Assembly: GCA_026026165.1 (NCBI GenBank)
Contig: JAPEUD010000013.1
Location: forward strand, 124,001 to 188,000
DNA: 64,000 nt
From: Sarea resinae
Lineage: Eukaryota
Reading direction: 5' to 3'
In this document: positions 769-14,980 of the stretch, piece after piece
How positions within the stretch are numbered: the stretch's first letter is position 1
Layout of the letters: every line of letters starts with the position of its first letter
The notes under the pieces: generated by a model
Database searches by the model: none
Seen by the model: the letters and a program-made list of their open reading frames with translations, nothing else
What the model was told of the DNA's origin: nothing
Program-made: the position numbers and the translations under genes

Positions 769-2730
769 TTACGAGATCACAAAAGGCGGCTTGCCCTCGC
801 CGAATAATAGATGTGGTTTCCTCGCCGCCAGGTCCAGGATCGTTTGCGCAAAGACCGAATTGGCCCAGGCGAACCAGCTCCCTAACGTAATCGATCAGTA
901 AATCCGAACACTCGAGGAGGTTCCATCAGTCCTTACTCGTATATTCCCCTAGTCGATTGACGTTGATACTCTCATGCACCAGGCCCAGCTTACTCACATC
1001 CCTAACCATGTGCAACGATTCCACTATCTCCGCATCGTTCTCACTAGTCATGGCCTGCACCAACAGGCTCATTGGCCACGCATTCTGCAATCCGATGTGC
1101 GGACCACCGACTCCCTTGAACGTCTTTCCAGCGAGATAATAAGGATTCCCTTGCTGCTCCAGAATCATCTTGCGTGTATTCTTGTAAACGCTATTGGAAG
1201 AGTCGACGAAGCCGAGAAGAGGGAGAGCGAGGAGCGAAGGCAGATTGGCGTCATCCATGATGATGGCAGAACCATAGCCGTCGACTTCGTACGCGAAGAC
1301 TTCTCCGTATTTCTTATGCGTCACCACACCGTGCTCCCACACGCCCTTCTCCATGCTTTGACCCCGGTCACGCAGCGTCTTTGCCAGCGCGGCTTTCCCG
1401 GCCTTCTCGAGGATTTCGGCCGTGCGCTTCAGCTCAACGGACATCATGGCGTTGGCAGGGATGTAAAAGCCGAGGATCGTCGCGTCGTCACTGGGACGGA
1501 AGGCACTCCTTACAAGTCCGGTCCTGTCGTGCAAGGGATTCCCGACCCCGGCAAGGTTGAGCGTCTCCGTGCCAATGTCTGTCCTCCTCTTGAAGGTATA
1601 CTCGTTCCTCTGAAACTTGCCCGTTGTTGCATTAAAGGTCGGTTCGGCCTGCTTGTCGAGAACCTCCAATATCGTCCTGAGAGCTTCGTACCACCGGGAG
1701 TTCAGAAATTCCGTAGAACCGGTGCTTTTATGGAATTGGTTGGTCAAGGAAAGGAAGTGAGCGAGAGAGTCAAGCTCGTATTTGCATTCAAAGACAAACG
1801 AAGGTTCATAGGCAGGATGAACAGTGTCCTCCTGGCCGTTGCCCGTGGGTGGTAGACGGCTTGGAGGAGGCGGCTGAAAGGCATTGCAGTACGGTGATTC
1901 AATAACGAATTCCGCCTGCGTATTTATTGCCCCTAGTATCAAACTGTATATCTTCTTGTCCTTCTTCGCGAGCACTTGGTACTGAGCCAGCTGGTTCGTC
2001 GAGTCTCTCAGCCACTCGGCATTAATGTCGCCTGTGACAATGAAGCTCTGAGGCGCTTTCCATTTCTTTCCATTATCCTGTCTATAGGACTTTTTCTCGG
2101 TGCCATCAATGTGCCATTTAACGGTCGTATCCAACGTATTTGGGAATGCGTTTTCGAAGATGCGAGCAAGGTCCTTATCTACCAGTCGTTGGCTGAGGTC
2201 TTCGATGACCTTCTCAACAAGATCCGAAACAAAGGTTCGGCATGCTAAAGCTGGCCGCTGATAAGGAAGCCCTAAGGGCCCATCACTGAAAGGTTGACTA
2301 CGTGACAGCCATTGCGTCAGAATCTACCACCCTTGGAGCGAATGTCTGCAGCATTTACTTACTGCGGAAAGCCAGCATAATGCTTGTATTCTGGACAGGC
2401 TTCACGATACTTCTGAGGATCGGTGAGGATATCTTGGCCCTTAGGCACCTCTCGAGCCGCGCCGTTGGACACTCCAGATACCTCCTGAGCAGAATTCAGA
2501 AACAGCCCAATGCAAAGCAGCAGCGAAGCCGTTCCTAAAAGTACCATCGCTATGAGCGCCCAGGGAGATCGAGATGATAGTAATGGCGATGCGGTCTGAC
2601 GTCTGTCCTGCCCGCTCGACTTGGGACCGTCCTTCTCGATTTCGAGGAATGTAGATGGATTCGATTGTTGCGGAGCGTTATTGGAAGTAGGATCAAGGTC
2701 TGGCTTCAATTTCGACGGGCGGTAATGCAT
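769..2730 (-). CDS. Glycoside hydrolase family 125 (DUF1237) exo-alpha-1,6-mannosidase-like protein, multi-exon
   Basis: ORF 926..2134 has the GH125 motifs TGDINAEWLRDS, FECKYELDSL, SAFRPSDD, MDDANLPSLL and GVGGPH. The last exon reads WFAWANSVFAQ...VIS* (stop 769-771). The N-terminal exon (ATG 2730) has a hydrophobic anchor. GT-AG introns lie near 2300-2360 and 885-932. Confidence 0.88.
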
Positions 2731-2908: not shown

Positions 2909-2917
2909 AAACACTAT
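2909..2917 (+). repeat. Left target-site duplication AAACACTAT
   Basis: An identical 9-mer at 10897-10905 lies immediately outside the other terminal inverted repeat. Confidence 0.9.
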
Positions 2918-3025
2918 TTGCCTCAGTATACTCAGACCTCGCTTGGCGGGTGGTCCGCTGCGCACGGACCACTATTGCCTAAATAGGCAATCCACCAGCA
3001 TGAGGTCTGAGGCAACTTCTCTGAC
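2918..3025 (+). repeat. Left terminal inverted repeat (imperfect, about 110 bp, internally palindromic)
   Basis: Blocks TTGCCTCAG..CTCAGACCTC, TGCCTAAATAGGCAATCCAC and AGGTCTGAGGCAACT match the reverse complement of 10775-10896. Confidence 0.85.
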
Positions 3026-3164
3026 GTACTATGGCTGAAGCGGGCCGTTTGTATGGAGTCAACGATCATCGACTTCAAGGCATAAGATATCCGCAACTAT
3101 AACGCTGACAACACTGAAAGTTGCATCAATCGAAAGCCACACTTCTACTGCATAATCGATTACA

Positions 3165-5873
3165 ATGTCCGCGTCCGCAAAGAAACCGTCTGGTCAGAGG
3201 AAGCGTCGCAGGACAACGACTATATCCGCACCGACCGCACCGATCACACCGCAGACGTTCGCAACTGCAACGCCTACCTCGACTGATAGTCAATCTGAGC
3301 AACCGATATCAGCATCTGATAGACTATCTGCGAAGGAAAAGGTTAATATTATCCTGACAAAGCTGCGGGAGTGGCGGTTATCGCCTATCAAGTTTATAGA
3401 GATCTGGCTTGCTTATCTAGAAGAAGATCGAGGTTATATACAGTCGATGCATCGAAAAGCCCTTCTTGACTTAGTCCTTCAGTTCGACGACATTGTCTAT
3501 CTCTTGCAAACTGCGGATAGAGGTCTAGTCGCGGTCATCGACAGCAGTGTCGCTCTCATCCGCAGCGATCTAGACCAGCTACAAAGCCACTGTCCGCTGC
3601 TTAGCCGATATAACAAAGAGACAGACTTTAAGACACTCGACTTAGCTAGCTCCGCGGACCAAATCAAGAACATCGCGCCTAGGTTGTCACGTCTTATCAG
3701 CGGAGCTGCTGAATCGCAGTATGTTGCGAAACATCAGCGGACAACGTACTCAGCGGACAATGGACGAATGGTTATGACCGCATCTATGCTTGGTCTCAGA
3801 TATGCGCAAAAGACAATGAATTGCTTCGCCCGCATGCTAGGACTATATTTAAAAGACTCTGGACTGACCCGGAGAGGATTAAGCACGCTTCATAGCTTAG
3901 GCTTAGTGGATGGATATCGCACATTAGATGCGCAGAAACAGCGGATATCAGAACAGAGCAGAGAACGTGGTCCTTGAACGCTGTTATTTTCGAAGGCTGA
4001 CCAACCAAAGATAGCTATCCGCTCCGCCGCGCGGACGTGGGACTACGCGGTTGTATACGATAATTTCGAGTGGCACGCAAAAACACGGCATCAATCAGTC
4101 GGTCATACAGGAACTCTATATTCATACACGACCGGAAAACTATTACGCGGACGATGCCTACCAGACGGCGGACTTACACAAGATATGTTTCATCCTGGCG
4201 TTCGGGTGGACGTGATAGATCTTCTAGCTGCGGACGGAAATCGGATAGACGACACACAGGCGCGGATATCGACATATTTCATAGCTAGTGCTATCCGCGC
4301 GGCATATCCAGATGTTATCGATGATATCTTCGCTGCAGATACCCTTATGTTTCTGCAAATGCCAACCCTTGACGTCATTCCGCACAGGCGGACTAAGCAG
4401 ATTACCCTCAGACTAATCACTGAGTCAGAGGGTTCTACTGCGGGCACGTATAACGTGTTAGACAACATATTCGCCAGTCAGCTAGGGAAGGACACGGTTG
4501 ACTTCGAAAAGCAGCTGATATTAGTATTTGGTGATCAGAAAACAGCAAGCCTGATCCGCTCATGTCAGCTTGAGCGATCAGAGGCAGCGGATAGATACGA
4601 CCGCCTAGACTGGATATTATCTGTACCCGGCCTCTTCCACGTGCAGATGAACCTTCTGGCATTGATTGTTAGATCACACTATAGAGGACAGAGTAGTCTC
4701 CAGCAATATTCGACGCTATATTCGCACATCAATTTTCTTGGCCGTCGGAGTATACCTGCGGATAAAGCGCCCTTCCACTATCAGCAAGAGCTTGTTTAAC
4801 ATAGCTTTCAGGCAAGGATTGTTGCGTTATTCTTGTCGAAACTCCTAGGTGCATAGAAAAGACGGCATTCAGGTCGACTAGACATATTCCTCTGCACATT
4901 GACTCCTGCAGAATTCCTTGCTTATGTAGAGGATATCCGCAAAACCGCCTTCTCCGCTACTAGTTATCAAGAGCTAGCGCAATATGAGGCGGATATTCGT
5001 TGCGCGGATAACGCTACAGGGGATTCAAAGCATAAACAAACGCATAAACAGCAGCATCTGCCTCATGATACAGAGTATTTCAACCATATCCGCTTTATGC
5101 ACCACGTCGAGACGTACCTGACATTAAGGCATGCCATCAAATCTGCGGACATTGGATTGCTCCGCCGTGCGATTGCCTGCAGTTGTCTTTACTTCAGCGG
5201 AAGCAGGTCGTACAACTATTCGCGGGAGATGATTCGTTTATAGCAGCTGATATCTACACCGACGTGTGATCGTTGTCTGCAGCAGGCGATACTTGCAAAC
5301 AGTCTGGTCAGCAACTATAATAAACCAGGGACCTTCTTCGAAGTTGATCAGATGAATGAACTTCTTAATCTACAGCTAAAGACTATTCTACAGACTAAGG
5401 GTAATTCAACTCTCGATGTGACGGCTTTGTTCAAGTGGTCGGTGTTGATGACTAGTTATCTTGCTCCGCTGCGGTCTCAATTTGAATTTACGTTCGGAGA
5501 ACGTATTAATACGTCTCACACCGACAGATCCGCTACGGCGGATATCAGGAGTCTTGCGGATATAATTGCTTAAGACTCTATTATCTGTCGCGAGGACAAG
5601 AGATCTGCTCACGCAGCACTAGGATTGTTGCAATTAGGTGTTATGCGGCTAGCTGAAAAGGGACTGCCTACGTTGAGTAGCGGATATGTAGATCCAGATG
5701 AGGCGGATAATAACGATATAGACCAACAAGTTACAGAGGCGTTAGTAGGTCTTGATGTGAGTGTATATCCGCAGCTTTATAGTCATGACTCTGATGCAGA
5801 AGACCCTAGGCATTCGATGCTTAACCTGTTTAGCGGACATCCTAATACAATGCCTATTATATCGCTCCTGTAG
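3165..5873 (+). pseudogene. DUF6589 / Academ-type transposase with in-frame stops
   Basis: ORFs 3165, 4185, 4899, 5352 and 5625 are all in one frame. Motifs VVYDNFEW..RHQ, FGDQKT, PGLFHVQMN, ADIG, FSGSRSYNYSRE and FFEVDQMNELLN resemble DUF6589 proteins. Stops at about 3975 (possibly inside a short intron ending 4014), 4797, 4854, 5241 and 5571. Confidence 0.82.
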
Positions 5874-5987
5874 GCGGATATCGTGTCAGATCATCAGAGT
5901 ATTAACATCGAAATTTCATTCAACTAAACGAACGACCGCGAACGCAACCAACGATATCTATCGTATCTATAAACACCCTCATCACGA

Positions 5988-7818
5988 TTACCCTTGACTA
6001 TGTGACTGCTGCTGTTACTCTATCTAGCTAAACTACCTTCGGCGGATGTAATTCAGAATTTCCAAGACATCTGCAGATAGCCTCATGACGTCCGCTCTCA
6101 ACAAGGTCACCTCTGATCGCAACTCCGCTATATCTTCTGCTGTACTGGCGTTATTCGCGTTTCCTGCTTCGGCAGGGGCGGACGGCAGGGCATTACGCGG
6201 GGCATTACGCGGCTGGAGGAGGCTGCGGACGCGTTCGTTGACAGTGGCGGCTGACTCACAGGGAGGGCTGGCGGACGACGCAGCGCGCCAGGTATAGAGT
6301 CTTTCACGAACGAGGGCAGCGGGCGATGATGTGGCAGCGGGTGTAGAGCTGATGATAGCCTCTTCTGCTTCGATGTCCTCAAGCCTAGTCGGATCCCTTG
6401 TCTTCTGTGACTGTATAACGTGTCAGCTCCCACCAGATATGCATATCCGCGTCGAACATACCTTGCTAGGGCGCGGATGACTCTCTTCAGCGGGTGTGTC
6501 AGCCCTACGCTTCCGCGATTTCTTGTTGGAACTGTCTTTGATCCTACTAGAGGCACAGACTGTATTCTGTAGTGTCTGAGGCCCCTACAACCGCGTCAGC
6601 TATCTGGATCATCCGCCTAGCAGATATACAAACCTAATCACCTGCGGACAGATCGATATTGAATTTGCACGGCTTGCCAGCTTGTCGGCAACCAGCGCAG
6701 CTGTCTCTGGGTTTTACCATGGCCTTCTTAGGCTCATTTTTGTAAACCTTACAACTCAATCCTCTCTCAAGGCAGCGTTCACACTTCGTCCGCAGTTCAA
6801 CTCCCCAGTATAGATCGTTCATAATCAGATCTGCATAGGCGTAGGCCTTCTAACGAGTTCCTCTGAGGCTGTCCCATACTGACTGGTCACACGCTAGCCA
6901 ATCCAGAGTCGTGGGCTTGTGGATATACCATTGCTTGTTGAAGAATCGAGACTGTGCACGATTACAAGGCGCGGATAGATCCGCGGACGAACCTGCTTGT
7001 TCAGGTGATGCGTCTGACGTCTGGTCCGATCCATTTTAGGAGCCTTCTGGCCCGGATGGCAGCTTCCGTGATTTCTTACCTCTCTGCGTATTCGTAGTAG
7101 TCTCTTCGGCCGGTGTCTCTTCAGCCAGTGTCTCTTTAGCCGGTGTCTCCTCCGCTGGTGTCTCCTCCGCCGGTGTCTCATCCGCCGGTATCTCTGCCGA
7201 TGTCTCATCCGCCGGTGTCTGTTCAGCTGATGTCTCATCCGCCAGAGGATTCGTTCCTACTCCCCGCATAAGGAATTGCTGGAATTGCGGAGGTCAGAGC
7301 AGTTCAGGCGTGTCTCCACGACGCAGGTCTTGTGTCATCACTCTAACACGCGAACGATGACCGTTGTCACCTGACGGAAATGCGAATGGATCCTCGCTGT
7401 AATATGTCAGTTATTGCAGCTGATATACATATGCATATAACGGCGAGGGACAGCATTCAGCTGACAGTCAAATCACTTACATAGCGGACGCGGACTGGCT
7501 TATACCCTCACTTTATAGAGGTTAGTAACAGCAGCTGATATAGTTATGCGTTCAACGCGAAAGATGACAGTCAGCTGACAGTAAGATCACTTACCTAGCG
7601 TTGATAGCGGCGGATGCGGATTGAACCAGTTCCTCTCTATATAGAGGTCAGCAACTACAGCTGACATGTGCTGCTGCAAGACTAATCTCGAGTCAAAGGA
7701 CTCGAGGTTAGTTGGAAGTTATCACTCACATAGGCCTCAAGGTGCCTTCTTGACTACTAGCGACAGCTTTGACATACTCAGCTAGCTCATCTCCGCTATC
7801 ATCTGATCCACTAGCCAT
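5988..7818 (-). pseudogene. Transposon-borne Zn(II)2Cys6-like DNA-binding protein (acidic repeat, basic NLS-like patch, C-terminal coiled coil), 6 exons, stop-disrupted
   Basis: Hand-built model: ATG 7818; exons 7818-7730, 7636-7595, 7510-7481, 7396-6634, about 6584-6462 and about 6410-5988. The introns are GT-AG with CTRAC branch sites and keep the frame. Contains CERC-x6-C-x17-CAGC-x6-C, KKSRKRR and EDIAELRSEVTLLRADVMRLSADVLEILNYIRRR. The true stop is uncertain (6033 or 5988). Confidence 0.7.
7098..7245 (-). repeat. 15-bp coding minisatellite encoding (ETPAE/ETSAE)n
   Basis: Repeats of ccggtgtctcctccg and variants; translation ADETSAEQTPADETSAEIPADETPAEETPAEETPAKETLAEETPAEET. Confidence 0.85.
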
Positions 7819-8004
7819 GACTAGTATTAGAAGTGATAAGAGCAATGAAGTTACGATAGAGATAGTTGACGTTGATCAGTTCAACTAGGTAAAGACGATG
7901 ATATAATCACGAGAAGTTGAGTTAGAAGTTGAAGGTGGGTGCTGAGGTTAGTTGCTGAATATAAGCAGACTAATTAGACGAGGTGCTCTTTGTTCGAATC
8001 GCAT

Positions 8005-10440
8005 TCACCTATCAATAGCGCGGAAATGTGGTTTCTTTGTTGCACGAATTGGCTGCGGGTGAATGTTTATATCTGCATCCGCTAAGGGCTGACGTCTCTT
8101 ATGTGACCTGTCTACTGTGGCGGACGACGTGTTACCTTGTGAGTTATAACGCGAACGACTGATTGCTGGCGAATCAGACAGCTGACTTGATATATCAGAC
8201 GTTGCTAGAAGAGACGAGTCAGCTATAGCTGATATCGAGGTATAAGTTTCAGTCGTCGAATCATCCGCACAGATACAGGCTGCTAACGCGCCTAGTTCAG
8301 ACTTGTCTAGAGGCCTACCATCCTATTCCGCACATCTGATCAACGATTCTGCATCATGAATACTAGTCTTCTGCACATATATCCGCTCTATGACGTCCTC
8401 TGATATCACACATCCTAGCACTAGGACCCAAGTCATATCCTTGTACTTCGTCCGCATCCACTCTGACATCTAGCGGTTGATCCGAGCGGCGAGATACTTA
8501 TTTGTAGAAGGCCTTTTATTATAGGACCTGAATATCGCGAGATTTGGCTTATCTAGCACCCTTAATGCTGGGTCGCAGTTCGAACAGCAACGTCTGCGCG
8601 GGACTAGTTCCTTAGTGTCATCGTCCGCTAAATCCTCGTTGAATGCCCGCATAAAGATCTGGCGTAGGCAGTCTTTGTCTTCGTTCGCAAAATCATACAG
8701 CGGACGAGGAAGATCCGCTCGCCGCTCATACGCACTTTGGCGCTTCATTTTTGCGGAAGAACCTTGCACTTCAGCAGGCACAATGAAATGCGAGCCCCTA
8801 GGACTCAGCTCTCGCATCGTCTGCCGTTCGATGTCCGCATTGACCGCGTCAGCATCCGCTAATACAGCGGAAGATGCGATAGAATCAGTACTCATTCTAT
8901 CAGAGTCATCGCTGTCTAAGCAGGTCTGATCTTGACTTAGTAGGCTTGGCTGAGATAATGCTGGTGACGTCCGCGCAGTAGATCTCTGCACTCGTGACTG
9001 CTGACTGCCAACCTCCGCACCTTTTCTTGTTCTTGTCCGCACCCTAGGCCCTCTGCACCACTCATCAACGAGAAAGATTGCTTCTCCTTTCCGATCAACG
9101 CCTCGCGCTGCTCGGCCAAAACGCTGCCACACTAAGCTTAGGAGGCGATCACAGAAGATGCTATAATGAACCACCCGTTCAATATCCGCTATGTCTGCGC
9201 CCTGGGCAACCGCATCAGAGCAGAAGAGGATCCTTATCCTTGAGTGCGGTTTTGAATATTCGTCCTACATCCGCTCTTTGTCTTTCTCTGCAAGGGTAGA
9301 GTGATACACATCAACTGTGTGCATTGCTAACTGCGCTGAATATCCGCAGTTCTGCAGCCATCCACGGACTTTATCGCGAGCCTCCCTCAGCCGCCGCTTA
9401 CTGCTCATGAAGATCGCTGTCTTCTTGATCCGCTGCAGAGTAGGCCTCTTGGATTCCAGGCCTAGTGCGGCCGACGCCATGGCCTCTAACACACCCGCTG
9501 CAGACGGAGCCTCTGACCCGACCGCTGCTGATAGAGCTATATCCGCACCGTCGTGGGTTGAGCCATCGATAACGAAATATAGACAGTCGAATGACGTCTT
9601 CTCGCCGCGAGACATAGGTTTGCAGATGATAGCTAACTCGGGTCGATCGATTGATGTGCGGATCATTCTGACGTCTCAGTCAAAGCCAGCAAGCCGACAT
9701 ACCTCTGCAAAGGTGTCATCATCTAGCGTTGCGGTGCAAGCAAACCAGGGCTTGTTTCCTAGTAATCCGCGCAATATGTTCAGACTAGCATAACACTTGC
9801 GGAAGGAGGACCAGTCTGAGACTAGATGAACTTCATCTAATACCACAAGGGCTATCCGCTCTCGCAATTGTATGTCTTTCTATATCCGCTCTAGTTTCAG
9901 GCTAACCGCGAGTTCCGGCGATATTAGGATGTGTGTATAATTGCTATTGCGGATATCCTCAAGCAACTAGCGGTCATTGTTATTACCTGTTATGTGAACA
10001 GGCTTCATACCTGTGAGTTCCTTTATCTGCGCAGTCTGCTCGTCGCCAATCTTGTTTAGCGGAAGAATAACAAGAACAATAGCCCTGCAGACAAGGCATA
10101 GAATTGACTGCATAATCATACTCTTACCAAACGAGGTTTTCGCAATCAGGAAGAGATCCTTCTTCTCATATATCAGCCAACGGAGTGCATCTAGCTGCCC
10201 TAGTCTCCCACTATATAGATATATCGCGCGGATAAGCGTGTCGATCGCTATAAGCTGTTCTCCTTCGTCCGCATTACACAGCGCTTAGAGTCTGTTCTGT
10301 AGGTCCTATATCTGCCGCTCGTCATCCGTCTCAAGGTTACTGTATGCTATTGCCTCTGCTTGCAACAAGGCTTGCTCTGCGGATGTTTTTAGGTCCTGGC
10401 AGATATATTTGCCGCGGTTGCTAGGTCTCCTTCTAGGCAT
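8005..10440 (-). pseudogene. RecQ-like superfamily 2 DNA helicase of the transposon, with in-frame stops
   Basis: One frame from ATG 10440 to TGA 8005 links ORFs 9676..9867, 9265..9666 and 8470..9174. Walker A AKTSFGKS, SPE, DEVH followed by WSSFRKCY (RecQ aromatic loop-like), TAT, YHS, QRFGRAAR (motif VI) and the Zn module CLR...CCSNC. Confidence 0.88.
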
Positions 10441-10774
10441 CGAACGAGGCGATTATAGGGTATAAGACTCTATACAACCGCGCTATATCGCGTCTCATAC
10501 CCCACCCCTACACACTCAAGCTGTTATAGCAGATATGGTGCAGGTGTTGTTCTAATATTCCTACTCCTGCTCGTTAGTAACAACGCTTTTTTCACTTTGA
10601 GGCATAAGATCTCAGGAACAACTGCACCTTAGACATTGTAAATAACAGTAATAGATAGCCTTGCATATTCTCCAGAGATGATTAGATTATGAGCCTAGCT
10701 GCGGATGTGGTTGCAGATATATGCTGATAAACACGTTCGCTATGCGGAGGATAAATCCGCTTGTCCCACCAAAA

Positions 10775-10896
10775 TCAGGAAGAGTTGCCTCAGACCTTCT
10801 TTTCGTGGGTTGCCTATTTGGGCATGCTTAGTCATGCCATAATAGCGCCGGGTAACGCCCGGCGCCACGAAAGGAGGTCTGAGCATGCTGAGGTAA
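10775..10896 (-). repeat. Right terminal inverted repeat (imperfect, internally palindromic)
   Basis: Its reverse complement matches the conserved blocks of 2918-3025. Confidence 0.85.
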
Positions 10897-10905
10897 AAAC
10901 ACTAT
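10897..10905 (+). repeat. Right target-site duplication AAACACTAT
   Basis: Identical to 2909-2917. Confidence 0.9.
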
Positions 10906-11132
10906 CCGTGCTGTCATCGCTACGGCGGTCCAGGAAGATTGCGAGCGCACTTCTAAGCCCAACGAGGTTACGCGAGGTGCGACTAACCTATATGGCCGAA
11001 CAAGCCTGGTAGCAACTAACATTGGATAGACACTGCCTGGTTGCCCCTCTAATCTTTTATGCTATCATACATTTACAAATTTGATGAACTCAATTGCTGA
11101 AAAGGCCGACGAGTGCCTTCTTGTTATTGCCA

Positions 11133-13031
11133 TCATTTTTTCGAGAAAAAAGACATGATGTTTCCCTGTCCCTTGCCACTGGCCTTCTTATGCTTGCTTG
11201 TAGAGACAGCCGCGGGCGTAGAACTCTTTGCCTTCCGAGGCTCCGGCTCCTCCTCAGAGAAGGATTCCCACACCGGCTCCTCTTTCGTCACTGGCCAAAA
11301 GTCAGCCTGTCGTTGATGAAGTTAATGGGGTTTCATTGATGACGAACCCAGATACCCTTCTTCATCTTTAATCGTCTTCTTCCTCAAAACCTTTCGTCTG
11401 CCCCGTCTTCGTCCTCCTGAGACTGTCACTGGAAGTGTCTCTTCCTTCTGCACTTCAGGCTCTTCGGGTTCAGCTGTCTCGATATCCTGCGGGACTTCGA
11501 CGGGCACTGGAGGCGGATCTGGCATCAATTCATCTAAGATTGATCAGTAGCTGCCTTTCTTGTATGGACGATCTCGTACCCTCTTCCTCCATCATTTTTC
11601 TTAATTCATCCTCTCGCTGGCTTTTGGCTTGTCGTCTAGATTCATCTTTACCATCGAATTTGTTGACGACGAAGTCCTCTTCTTGTTCGTCTTCCGAAGC
11701 ATCTTTCATCGGCTCTGGTCTAGTTAGAAGCAAGCGACAAAAGTCAGGTTTGGGCAACGAACCATCTTCACGAGCACTTGGCTCAGCCTGAAAATTGATT
11801 AGCGGCGTAGCCAGATTTACAATGATAGTGAAGACCAACTGAGTCAGGAGCAGAAAGGGCTGGTGAAGCCTCAGCCGAGCTGTCTGTATCTTTACGTTTA
11901 AGCTTTGGCTGGGATTTAGCAAATGATTTGAAGATATCAGAGGTATCTCGTCGTATCGACGGCTTGACGTTAGCCTTTCGCGTTTTGCCCTCCTTCGTTT
12001 CAGTGGTAGCATCAGGAGTTGCACTCTTCGCTTCTGGAATCTTGATTTCTTTGCTAGGATTTGCTGAAGCTTTCTTCTCACTCGTACTCTCCTTTTTGAC
12101 GTTGAGAGCCTGTGCCGAAGATCCAGTCGGGTTTTTGGATGCCATCGGTGCTTCTGCTGCTGGTGGAGGTGGACGGCGTGTTGATCTCCGCTGGATCGAG
12201 GAAGCGTCAATGACATGGCTCTGGCAAGGGAACATTGAAACGGACCTTCACATTCGGATTTCGTATAATGCCATATCGGCCCCCAACTTCCAGCGGGTCT
12301 TCATCAGCATATTTAGACGATATGTCTCGATTGCAATCTGACAAGATCTGTAAGTTCTGATATCAGAGGAGTCAGCCGCAAGAATTCCCCTTAGATTGCT
12401 TAGACCTTTGACTACCTTCGGTGAGCTTGGTCCAAGACTGTAGATATGGATGGAAGTGATCTTTTGGTATTGTGCTCTCACAGCTAGGCAGTATCAATAT
12501 TGGGCCATCTATGAATATTTGCAGCTTCATTCGATAAGGTGTGGCACCATGGACCTACCTTCGAGGTCTTCTTGCCGAGCCAAAGTGATCGAGTGTACGG
12601 GTATGCTCTCTTCCTGGGTAGATTGGTTCTGAGGTGGGCTGCTCATGAACGGACTGCTCTGCATATACCGGTCCTCCCCATCCGTGTGAGACTCTCCATT
12701 TGCTGCAACATCCGTAGCAGGCCGCCGTTCACCGCTGATGAGATAAGTCGCATGTACCGATCCAGGCTTTTTGGTGATCTCTTGTCGGTGAAATTCGAAC
12801 AACAGCCTGCCAGGTCTTAGTCATGGATGATGAGGATAGAATGAAGGTCTCGTTACTCCTTCGCAAGGCTGCTGTGGACTTTTAGAGCTCTGCTCAGCGA
12901 ACGATAGCTGACCTAGACCAACTTGCGTGAGTGGATGGTATTTCGGGTTGATATATGAAAGTCTCGTATCTTACTACATGGCCATCGTTGAGCACCCAAG
13001 CAGCAAGAAGGTGCTTGAAACCTTCGTCCAT
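11133..13031 (-). CDS. POL32: DNA polymerase delta subunit 3 (Pol32/Cdc27), multi-exon
   Basis: N-terminus MDEGFKHLLAAWVLNDGHV, then VHATYLISG, SIHIYSLGPS and GRRRGRRKVLRKKTIKDEEGYL. C-terminal PIP box QGNIMSFFSKK* (stop 11133-11135). Confidence 0.88.
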
Positions 13032-13398: not shown

Positions 13399-14980
13399 AT
13401 GGCAGGGGACTCTCACATCATTCGCGAGGTTGGTATGTATTTGAGATCAAGAACTAGATCATGCTTTTTTCCACTTCTGACATTCTCGATGCTCAGGGAA
13501 TCTCGAGAGGTTATCGACTGCCCGCCATTCGCTCGGCATATATCGTTGCGTCATTGTCACCGCTAGATACTGTAATGGAAATTTCGATAGCGAAGCATCT
13601 TTCAAGTCTTTCTTTTTCAGCGCTCTTTCTCGAGTCGTCTTGAGGCACCCTGCTCTGTGTTGTGGCTTCGTCGATGAAGACAAAAGGGACGCTTCTTTTG
13701 TTGGACTGCGCGAAATTGATCTCAACCGTGTTGTGAGGTTCCAGACATACGACAGTGGAGATGGGCCATCCTACGAGAACGGCCAAAGAAAGCTATTGGA
13801 GCATGAACATTTGCAGCTGTGGGAGCATCTAGAAACCAATCCGGGATGGAGAGTGGTCGTCAGCCATCTCCCCCAGGCAGACCACGAGACGGTCAAGTCT
13901 CAGACGTCTATGATGGATGTTGTGTTTGCCTTTCATCATGCAGTGGGGGATGGACTGAGCGGAGCTGTATTCCACAGATCTCTGCTGAAAGAACTCCGGT
14001 CCACTACCTCGACTTTCGACCCTACAAAGCCCTGCACACCTCTGGTGCAACTACCCGAGAAGATCGAACTTGTCGAGCCAGTGGAGAAGCTTCTTAAATT
14101 CTCATTCTCGCTTCGGTTTATTTGCGGCTTCGTGTTCCGTGCATTGATTCCGTCGTGGCTGTTGGGAAAGGGTCCCATATGGGCGGGCGCACAGTATTAT
14201 CTGTCGAGTCCAGAGGAATTCAAGACTCATGTTCGCCACTTCTCAATCCCACAAGAGCAGCTCAAGTGTATCCTCAGTGCTTGTAAGGCCAAGAGTGTAA
14301 CACTGACGGGTCTCCTCCATGGCTTGCATGTTACATTACTCGCACAAATGGTTCCAGACGCCGACCGGCTCTCTGGTCATACCCCTTATTCGCTCCGACG
14401 CTTGATTCCGAAATCAGAGGAAGAAGTGGCTGTTCAGGTTTCGGTGTTGGAAATTGATTTTCCTTCACGGTTTTTCCGATCCAGCCGAAACGCGGCTGGA
14501 AGCGGAGAACCAGATTGGGAAGAGGTCTGGAAGGTGGCGAGATATTACGGCAAATTGATGCAGCGAGAGGTGGACAGGGCTCCGAAAGACAACGTAGTTG
14601 GTCTTCTGGGCTTCATCGGGGATTATCATGACCATTACCGCAAACTTTTGCAGAAAAAGCGAAAGTCGACTTATGAGATATCCAATATCGGGGTCTTTGG
14701 TGAACGCGCGTGCATTTCATCTGCTGATGTGCATGAAGACGGCAGTGGCTGGGGTATACACAGCATGATCTTCACCGGAAGTGGCATGGTTACTGGACCT
14801 GCATTGGGCGCGACTGTGGTCAGTGTCCAGGGAGGGCCCCTGAGCATTGCCTTCACTTGGCAAGATGGCATCTTCGAAGAAGCTTTCGTCGACAACTTCG
14901 TCGACAACTTAGAGACATCACTGCGGGAATTGAGCAGCAAGGAAGAGAAAGTTGTGTCGATATTGGAGACACCAAAGTGA
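13399..14980 (+). CDS. Alcohol acetyltransferase-like (condensation-fold) protein
   Basis: HHAVGDGLSG (HxxxD) motif, SNIGVF and GPLSIAFTW. A short first exon MAGDSHIIREV is followed by a GTATGT intron. Confidence 0.8.

Follow-up and report, generated by a model that had tools for sequence, protein, structure and literature searches.

A CGG-centred word array throughout an AcademH transposon of Sarea resinae and its relatives, and its candidate readers

We analysed a 64,000-nucleotide stretch of the genome of the fungus Sarea resinae (assembly GCA_026026165.1, contig JAPEUD010000013.1, positions 124,001 to 188,000 of the forward strand; hereafter the window), in which a DNA transposon, hereafter the window element, occupies positions 2918-10896 and is saturated with the pentamer GCGGA and its complement TCCGC. 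The element contains a transposase gene, a gene for a coiled-coil protein with six conserved cysteines (Cys6) and a gene for a RecQ-like superfamily-2 helicase, all three now pseudogenes (Table 1). A first-pass annotation had noticed the pentamer and had proposed that the element encodes a zinc-cluster protein that recognises its own DNA. Comparison of the window element with its relatives led us to conclude that the array is real and selected, i.e. a putative array of binding sites, for which the Cys6 protein is the leading candidate reader.

The window element and its genes

Judging by its gene content and its ends, the window element is an AcademH DNA transposon, and the earlier assignment to Academ is borne out by the DUF6589 transposase, the RecQ-like helicase, the 9-bp target-site duplications and the terminal inverted repeats. 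In the transposase about 290 N-terminal residues without a known domain are followed by DUF6589, which we take to be the Academ transposase domain; five internal stops (TGA, TAA, TAG, TAG and TAA) interrupt it, all in one frame. The helicase scores above the Pfam cut-offs for DEAD and Helicase_C, with RecQ_Zn_bind at 21.3 bits lying under its cut-off of 25. The window copy is dead. TpA/ApT is 0.87 inside the element vs 0.64 outside, which together with the stops, all of them TGA, TAA or TAG, is a mild signature like that of repeat-induced point mutation (RIP).

Relatives were collected by scanning metagenome contigs with an eight-row transposase alignment, which yielded 46 loci (given L numbers here) without host assignment. 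Three of these, L006, L043 and L038, are complete elements, and all four complete elements, the window element included, have 9-bp target duplications. AcademH is described in PMC10045372 as an Academ lineage of fungi that encodes a helicase in place of an XPG nuclease and makes target duplications of 9-10 bp, and the window element and its three complete relatives resemble that lineage in having the helicase and the 9-bp duplications.

The terminal inverted repeats open with TTGCCTCAG / TTACCTCAG, and the pattern TTRYCTYAG...CTYAGAC is conserved among the complete elements. These repeats carry a word of their own, CTCAGAC, and lack GCGGATAT, the full form of the internal word described below; recognition of the ends by the transposase therefore need not involve GCGGATAT. 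Pentamers lie close by, with one TCCGC 37 bp from the left end of the window element and two sites, at 10744 and 10756, forming TCCGCATAGC about 140 bp from the right end, a similar distance to that found in L043 and L038. At both ends of all four complete elements the terminal word (TTGCCTCAG...CTCAGAC) is accompanied by an inverted copy, GGTCTGAGGCAA, some 85-100 bp further in, so that the terminal 100 bp could fold back on itself. Such fold-back ends may be of interest for a helicase-assisted mechanism.

Table 1. Features of the window element, in window coordinates; sites are occurrences of GCGGA or TCCGC.
Feature	Position	Strand	Details
Left target-site duplication AAACACTAT, 9 bp	2909-2917	.	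identical bases at 10897-10905
Word array	2918-10896	.	105 sites: 52 GCGGAT, 31 GCGGAC, 19 GCGGATAT, 17 GCGGACG
Left terminal inverted repeat TTGCCTCAGTATACTCAGAC...	2918-3017	+	repeat search; end words common to L006, L043 and L038
Transposase pseudogene	3165-5873	+	Pfam DUF6589 239 bits, E 7.7e-71
Cys6 coiled-coil pseudogene	6036-7269	-	at least one in-frame TAG, probable introns; family profile E 9.8e-48
Cys6 motif C-x2-C-x6-C-x17-C-x2-C-x6-C	6667-6786	-	Pfam Zn_clus 17.3 bits, E 0.0052
15-bp tandem repeat, about 10 units	7079-7258	-	encodes acidic ETPAE-type repeat; 5 of the 105 sites (7151-7238)
RecQ-like superfamily-2 helicase pseudogene	8005-10440	-	several in-frame stops; Pfam DEAD 53.9, Helicase_C 41.5 bits
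Right terminal inverted repeat, read inward TTACCTCAGCATGCTCAGAC...	10783-10896	-	inner inverted copy also present
Right target-site duplication AAACACTAT	10897-10905	.	pairs with 2909-2917

A word under selection on DNA across one AcademH clade

An exact count gave 105 sites between 2918 and 10896, i.e. 13.2 per kb (as read on the plus strand, GCGGA 50 times and TCCGC 55 times), with 6 sites in 1-2917 and 2 in 10897-13000, numbers identical to the hand counts of the first-pass annotation; the remainder of the window (13001-64000) holds 109, or 2.1 per kb. The element and the window as a whole have G+C contents of 0.49 and 0.51, respectively. When pentamers were ranked by their frequency inside vs outside the element, GCGGA came first, with 105 sites vs 16.7 expected from the outside frequencies (z 21.6). 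Markov models of the element itself predicted 16.2 sites at order 1, 26.5 at order 2 and 83.6 at order 3, the last value being high only because the word itself raises the counts of its constituent 4-mers, GCGG and CGGA. Shuffles of the element that preserve dinucleotides gave 16.5±3.8 sites (300 shuffles, maximum 27). We also shuffled synonymous codons within each gene, preserving both the protein and its codon usage; 1000 such shuffles gave 12.6±2.8 sites (maximum 21) for the transposase, where 41 were observed (over 3156-5873), and 12.6±2.7 (maximum 21) for the helicase, where 32 were observed (over 7963-10401). The excess of GCGGA thus remains after both corrections, for codons and for dinucleotides, by which the first-pass annotation had proposed to judge it.

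The sites lie on both strands, in all three genes and in the spacers, as had been described, and within coding DNA they occupy all three frames in both orientations. Their density is 13-16 per kb in both large genes and in two of the Cys6 exons, rises to 26 per kb in Cys6 exon 1, which includes a tandem repeat, and is 8.5 per kb in the 1,886 bp without coding assignment, so that coding DNA is the denser. The palindrome TCCGCGGA was located at both of the places given for it, 3651 and 6980, and the peptides ADIRCAD and ADIRSLADII, through which the word had been said to shape the proteins, are found in the read-through transposase. About 8 of the 105 sites fall within tandem or 6-bp-spaced repeats. 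GCGGA is mainly on the sense strand of each large gene of the window element, and no common orientation rule emerged when this element was compared with L002, the reference copy among the relatives. Nor did direct, inverted or everted pairs of sites show a preferred spacing beyond small tandem-repeat periods, in a comparison of five elements made without a shuffle control.

GCGGA forms the centre of an extended word, approximately T-GCGGA-T-A-T. In the window element GCGGA is followed by T in 52 sites, C in 31, G in 13 and A in 9, then by R and then by W, and it is preceded by A or T in 68 of the 105; in L002 the preceding base is T in 52% of sites and the word takes the form T-GCGGA-[T/G]-A-T-[C/T]. 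The full word GCGGATAT occurs 19 times in the window element (0.4 expected) and once in the 56 kb of window outside it (1.4 expected). In L002 GCGGATAT was found 39 times vs 0.6 expected, TGCGGATAT 26 times vs 0.14 and TGCGGATATC 15 times vs 0.03. The count of GCGGATAT is highest in L002, which is apparently intact and non-degraded, and is lower in degraded copies. A literature search, which did not extend to the original description of AcademH, found neither GCGGATAT nor ATATCCGC as a word.

Related words with A in place of the first G of the CGG core were also seen. In L041, a word-poor locus of 1,496 bp, TGCAGAT, a single transition away from TGCGGAT, is in weak excess (4 vs 0.38), and GCAGA-type words are enriched in L012, L016, L022 and the window as well (GCAGATA 10 vs 0.5). 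These may be decayed or variant forms of the main word.

The word is a trait of the family. The 46 loci are not independent, and the transposase tree divides the word-bearing ones into about five lineages (the window, L001, the L002 type, the L004 type and the L038/L043 type), and most copies are degraded, which adds noise to the alignments and to the tree; transposases of the word-bearing relatives are about 40-50% identical to that of L002. Among the 38 loci of at least 3.5 kb, flanks included, GCGGA was the pentamer most enriched over an order-1 Markov expectation in 29 and the second or third in 4 more, falling outside the top three in L012, L023, L035, L038 and L043. In the transposase gene alone it reached 3.3-6.9 times expectation in 43 of the 46 loci, the exceptions being L008 (2 vs 4.0), L041 (2 vs 1.4) and L039 (1 vs 0.5); the ratios for L042 and L045, with a single site each, mean little. 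Along the loci the density forms blocks with sharp edges, and in all four complete elements these edges coincide with the terminal repeats and 9-bp duplications. Counts of GCGGATAT inside the element and in its flanks were 34 and 0 for L006, 21 and 2 for L043, 16 and 0 for L038, and 19 and 1 for the window.

L002 has 7-9 sites per kb in each gene and the same density in noncoding DNA, the exception being two small coiled-coil exons. Here too the shuffles fell well short of the observed counts (transposase 15 vs 6.0±2.1, helicase 26 vs 10.4±3.0, whole contig 93 vs 24.8±4.9). Because this apparently intact element bears the word and passes the shuffles, the word belongs to the active element and has not arisen through decay. 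In noncoding DNA the word has been multiplied by short tandem arrays; in the noncoding DNA of L002, which holds such small arrays, 25 of 29 sites are in one orientation, and L002 also has a long central stretch of single orientation, antisense to its genes. Its 12,044-bp contig retains long open reading frames, with two overlapping ones, perhaps separated by an intron, for the transposase and others for both of its Cys6 genes and for a helicase of 1,190 residues, with a host-like G+C of 0.47 and a TpA/ApT of 0.91, far below that of its degraded relatives. L002 may be a master copy that is active or was so until recently.

In a quick maximum-likelihood tree with a midpoint root the word-bearing loci form one clade (Shimodaira-Hasegawa-like approximate likelihood ratio, SH-aLRT, 95), whose sister clade holds L008 and L041. 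The sister lineage is sampled as the transposase gene only (2.7 kb in L008, 1.5 kb in L041), and no alternative enriched word was found in L008, the TGCAGAT excess of L041 coming from 1.5 kb only. The conserved residues KRADI, KHADI and EIRKS are the same in L008 and L041, but their codons avoid the word: where word-bearing lineages write K-H-A-D-I as ...GCG GAT ATC and D-I-R as GAT ATC CGC, and also use ATA TCC GCx, L008 and L041 have GCC GAT, GCT GAC and ATT CGA at the same residues. Of 56 transposase alignment columns with a site, 31 have it in one lineage only and a few share it among four to six lineages, which indicates that individual sites turn over while the density is maintained. The array is shown to depend on selection at the level of DNA; the clade has conserved it, and the sister lineage is poor in it.

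The Cys6 coiled-coil protein as candidate reader

The cysteine-rich gene that had been placed between transposase and helicase is present there, and homologues occupy the same place in relatives wherever a locus holds both flanking genes. A family profile matched 32 of the 46 loci as well as the window, always on the strand opposite the transposase, and many of the unmatched loci are cut off before the place where the gene could be looked for. The gene encodes, in order, an acidic five-residue repeat, a domain in which two Trp, one His and six Cys are nearly invariant, a basic stretch and a coiled coil. The window and L001 each have a single copy, and elements of the L002 and L004 types have two tandem paralogues. 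The domain belongs to a wider fungal family of 133 proteins (E<=0.001 among 1.84 billion representatives), in some of which it is joined to a bromodomain or to C2H2 fingers.

Several side observations concern this gene. The sole match of the window gene in a search of longer proteins was P0006 (267 residues), a gene model of the same locus that avoids the in-frame stop by joining pieces on either side of it and has the Cys6 domain spliced out as intronic; it is probably a mis-modelled pseudogene. In elements of the L002 and L004 types the two Cys6 genes form a tandem duplication of about 2 kb (in L002 3382-5348 and 5349-7295, about 74% DNA identity), and the two L002 proteins, ZnA and ZnB, are 65% identical. 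The central 5 kb of L002 (3057-8098), comprising both Cys6 genes and a further frame, orfX, is 88.6-90% identical to L004:2697-8034, while the transposase genes of the two elements are about 68% identical in parts and their helicase genes gave no blastn match; the Cys6 module thus seems to have been exchanged between two AcademH lineages. OrfX (L002:7715-8119, minus strand) would encode 135 Q/S-rich residues with internal repeats and overlaps the 3' end of the helicase gene on its downstream side; it has no Pfam match, is conserved in the L002 and L004 types and was not found in the window.

Most probably the dense word is an array of sites to which a sequence-specific DNA-binding protein attaches, so marking or coating the element's copies, with selection on the DNA itself keeping the word in genes (in all frames), introns, spacers and subterminal regions. 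Binding of the word by a protein is our inference, as is the identity of that protein; the leading candidate is the Cys6 coiled-coil protein encoded by the element, to which we give a probability of about 0.4. The Cys6 protein would act in trans on any copy that bears the word, including copies that have lost the gene, and its purpose could be transcriptional activation or anti-silencing of its own copies, or accessory help when the transposition complex assembles. Its sites would be single and CGG-centred, read in the manner of the monomeric regulators AlcR and Pho7. According to PMC6265462, AlcR of Aspergillus nidulans binds 5'-(A/T)GCGG as a monomer and has extra structure between its two zinc-binding halves, and Pho7 of fission yeast binds TCGGA(C/A)ATT... 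as a monomer. T-GCGGA-T-A-T resembles these sites in being single, asymmetric and centred on CGG, in keeping with the link to CGG triplets drawn by the first-pass annotation, and the long loop that separates the third Cys of the Cys6 domain from the fourth, with its 15-17 residues, may parallel the inter-half structure of AlcR. AlcR and Pho7 are host regulators with few sites per promoter, whereas the AcademH array is element-wide.

The architecture of the Cys6 protein is transcription-factor-like, and the secondary variants of the word, i.e. the base that follows GCGGA, track the Cys6 gene content of the lineages. GCGGAG is present at 4.4-7.0 times expectation in six elements with two Cys6 paralogues, vs 2.8 times in the window and 1.7-2.3 times in two elements that lack Cys6. 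An enrichment of 9.1 times for GCGGAC and 19.6 times for GCGGACG is confined to the window, and the window Cys6 protein is the most divergent. Of the co-variation between word and zinc cluster that had been predicted, this secondary part is found; the primary word stays constant across divergent Cys6 proteins.

Other observations weigh against the Cys6 protein as the reader, and some of them concern the domain itself, whose membership of the Zn(II)2Cys6 family (PF00172) is not established. The description of the gene as a zinc-cluster gene is weakened: the six-Cys motif is conserved, but the Pfam Zn_clus scores are below the gathering cut-off of 21 (17.3 bits in the window, 17.8 in L002 ZnA, 14.4 in ZnB, and 19.6 for the isolated L002 domain), and the nearest clusters are of DUF3716. 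In favour of the Cys6 protein, Zn_clus matches 24 of 68 members of the wider family at E<=0.01; it reaches 21 bits or more in 4 of 27 scanned members, all four being partial matches; the first half of the Cys6 domain aligns with the second half of the Zn_clus model. Canonical Zn2Cys6 domains have the spacing C-x2-C-x6-C-x5-12-C-x2-C-x6-8-C, which the short spacings of the Cys6 domain match, but its middle loop has 17 residues in the window and 15 in L002, L003 and L001. The DNA-reading helices of Zn2Cys6 domains typically carry a run of basic residues, and the first C-x2-C-x6-C of the Cys6 domain has none. DUF3716 (PF12511) scored 14.3 bits (E 0.04, cut-off 22) against L002 ZnA and matched 8 of the 68 family members at E<=0.01; in the three nearest Atlas clusters (scores 0.92-0.88) it is annotated in 28%, 99% and 90% of members. 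A structure model of the domain was built from a 68-row alignment (predicted local distance difference test, pLDDT, 91.6), a 7-row version (pLDDT 40.6) being discarded. Foldseek returned no match to this model at E<=0.001; among its weaker matches, which speak for the Cys6 protein, 13 of 19 were Zn2Cys6 DNA-binding domains, including Leu3, Pho7 and AlcR (those three at E 2.4-4.4). PDB sequence searches with the Cys6 protein and with a 7-row profile gave chance-level matches only (Gfi-1, E 0.69; CFAP45, E 0.32).

The remaining points against it concern the distribution of gene and word. L038 (6.4 kb) and L043 (6.6 kb) are complete elements with a transposase and a helicase only, separated by 900 bp, and the Cys6 family profile has no match in either. 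They carry GCGGATAT 16 and 21 times (0.4 expected), i.e. at 2.5-3.2 per kb, the density being 2.8 per kb in the Cys6-bearing L006 and 2.4 in the window. The first-pass annotation had tied the enrichment to the presence of the zinc-cluster gene, and in this it is contradicted: the same density of the primary word in elements lacking the gene requires either reading in trans or a different reader. L038 and L043 are nested within the word-bearing clade next to the window (support 90), so the Cys6 gene was probably lost there. The primary word is identical where the Cys6 proteins share 23-34% identity (23% between the window and L002), a constancy that a more conserved protein would fit better. 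The co-variation of the secondary variants comes from few lineages (two with paralogues, one without the gene, the window and L001), the two-paralogue lineages behind it having the same Cys6 module, and the five elements compared show no spacing preference that would indicate a dimeric site.

We tentatively put forward a fuller scheme, of which we are decidedly unsure, in which the reader is an exchangeable module of one or two DUF3716/Zn_clus-like Cys6 coiled-coil proteins whose 8-10 bp word is written throughout the element, bending its choice of codons and amino acids, so that every copy is coated as self. Paralogues would split the word between them (T, G or C after GCGGA), the module would move by recombination, and elements without a Cys6 gene would use readers supplied in trans.

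Other explanations and known systems

Another reader could be a protein that every member encodes, namely the transposase through its N-terminal 290 residues or so or, less likely, the helicase, with the Cys6 protein as an accessory that has another task; the array would then serve transposase loading, transcriptional self-activation or complex assembly. All complete elements have both transposase and helicase, even L038 and L043, which keep the word, and a primary word that is invariant across lineages is what a conserved protein predicts. The word moreover clusters 35-60 bp from the left end in all four complete elements, with TCCGCATAGC 130-150 bp from the right end in three of them, and a plant Mutator transposase is reported in a 2026 preprint to activate its cognate copies in a sequence-specific manner (10.64898/2026.08.24.746577). 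This explanation is nevertheless unlikely in our judgement, because the terminal repeats have CTCAGAC and lack GCGGATAT, the array runs evenly along 6-12 kb and is not concentrated at the ends, and the N-terminal region shows no DNA-binding domain (no Pfam match, and only unnamed Atlas clusters). The sister transposase, 50% identical to that of L002, keeps this region in a gene without the array, and the link of GCGGAG and GCGGAC to Cys6 content would be left unexplained. A conserved host DNA-binding protein, e.g. of the zinc-cluster or C2H2 type, recruited by the word for expression or chromatin state would make an element-encoded reader unnecessary; it would account for the same word in elements that lack Cys6, as well as for one word across lineages in differently named records, and GCGGAG fits the CreA/Mig1 consensus SYGGRG. 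We consider a host factor improbable, since the flanking host DNA has no excess of GCGGATAT (1 vs 1.4 expected in 56 kb), the trait follows the phylogeny of the transposon, in which the sister lineage is word-poor, and promoters need far less than a word of 8-10 bp repeated about 3 times per kb across coding DNA.

It is also conceivable that there is no reader, and that codon or amino-acid usage, contexts spared by RIP, another mutation bias or local tandem duplication produced the word incidentally. The window element and most relatives are indeed degraded by changes of the C-to-T/G-to-A type, with Cys-to-Tyr replacements and stops common, and TpA/ApT is 1.2-1.7 in most relatives and raised, as given above, in the window element; some sites fall on conserved residues such as K-H-A-D-I and a few lie within tandem repeats. 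However, the intact L002 has the highest count of the full word, its noncoding density equals its coding density, and the excess remains after the codon and dinucleotide shuffles. TpG is a preferred context of RIP, and the favoured TGCGGA contains it. The sister lineage has these residues too but spells them with codons that do not form the word, and tandem or 6-bp-spaced repeats hold about 8 of the 105 window sites. RIP was rejected as the cause of the word on the grounds that L002, although intact, is the richest in the full word and that the excess survives the shuffles. The by-product explanation is thus largely refuted, and we leave it very little weight; what probability remains belongs to explanations that we have not thought of.

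Among described systems the VANDAL transposons of Arabidopsis, with their anti-silencing VANC proteins, appear closest. Hosaka et al. 2017 (PMC5735166) describe a word, YAGTATTAY, that is dense in its own family and rare elsewhere, and the density of sites, rather than any single site, is thought there to give VANC its specificity. AcademH is like VANDAL in accumulating a short word in its own family and in multiplying it through tandem repeats, and the extra non-transposase gene that encodes the reader in VANDAL would have its candidate counterpart in the Cys6 gene. The VANDAL word is mainly noncoding, in arrays of one orientation, and coding probes lack it, whereas in AcademH the coding DNA is no emptier of the word than the noncoding and holds it in all frames and both orientations; the comparison with VANC made in the first-pass annotation accordingly stands for the specificity of the word to its own family and not for noncoding arrays of a single orientation. 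VANDAL words change fast and differ between close families, while the AcademH primary word is old and constant at 40-50% transposase identity to L002 and only the base after GCGGA varies between lineages. VANC binding has been demonstrated, whereas the AcademH word is known from sequence alone, and Pfam gave no relation of the AcademH proteins to the VANC family. Nothing relevant to transposon-encoded Zn2Cys6 proteins was found among the literature matches listed.

In En/Spm (through TnpA), Ac and Mutator an element-encoded DNA-binding protein reads a repeated short word, with roles in transposition and in the transcription or methylation state. The clusters of these elements span a few hundred bases at the ends, whereas the AcademH word is spread evenly over 6-12 kb. 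Words made dense by selection on DNA are familiar from bacterial genomes and, among transposons, from the noncoding parts of plant VANDAL elements. AcademH is a eukaryotic case in which one transposon family carries its word through coding DNA, in all frames, among transposases less than half identical.

The word, the candidate genes of the intact L002 and two natural controls, the word-poor sister lineage and the elements without Cys6, together offer a test system that is both clean and inexpensive. With it one could learn how a fungal transposon distinguishes itself from the DNA of its host, give a first function to a widespread uncharacterised fungal cysteine-rich domain, and measure how much protein-coding freedom an element surrenders for a DNA signal. 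Were the exchangeable-reader scheme true, AcademH would hold the fungal equivalent of VANC, extended to coding sequence, and the DUF3716-like domain would gain its first function.

The window element itself sits in a spacer between ordinary genes, its flanking host genes encoding a GH125 alpha-mannosidase (926-2323, minus strand, 566 bits) and an alcohol-acetyltransferase-like protein (13481-14980, plus strand, 75.5 bits).

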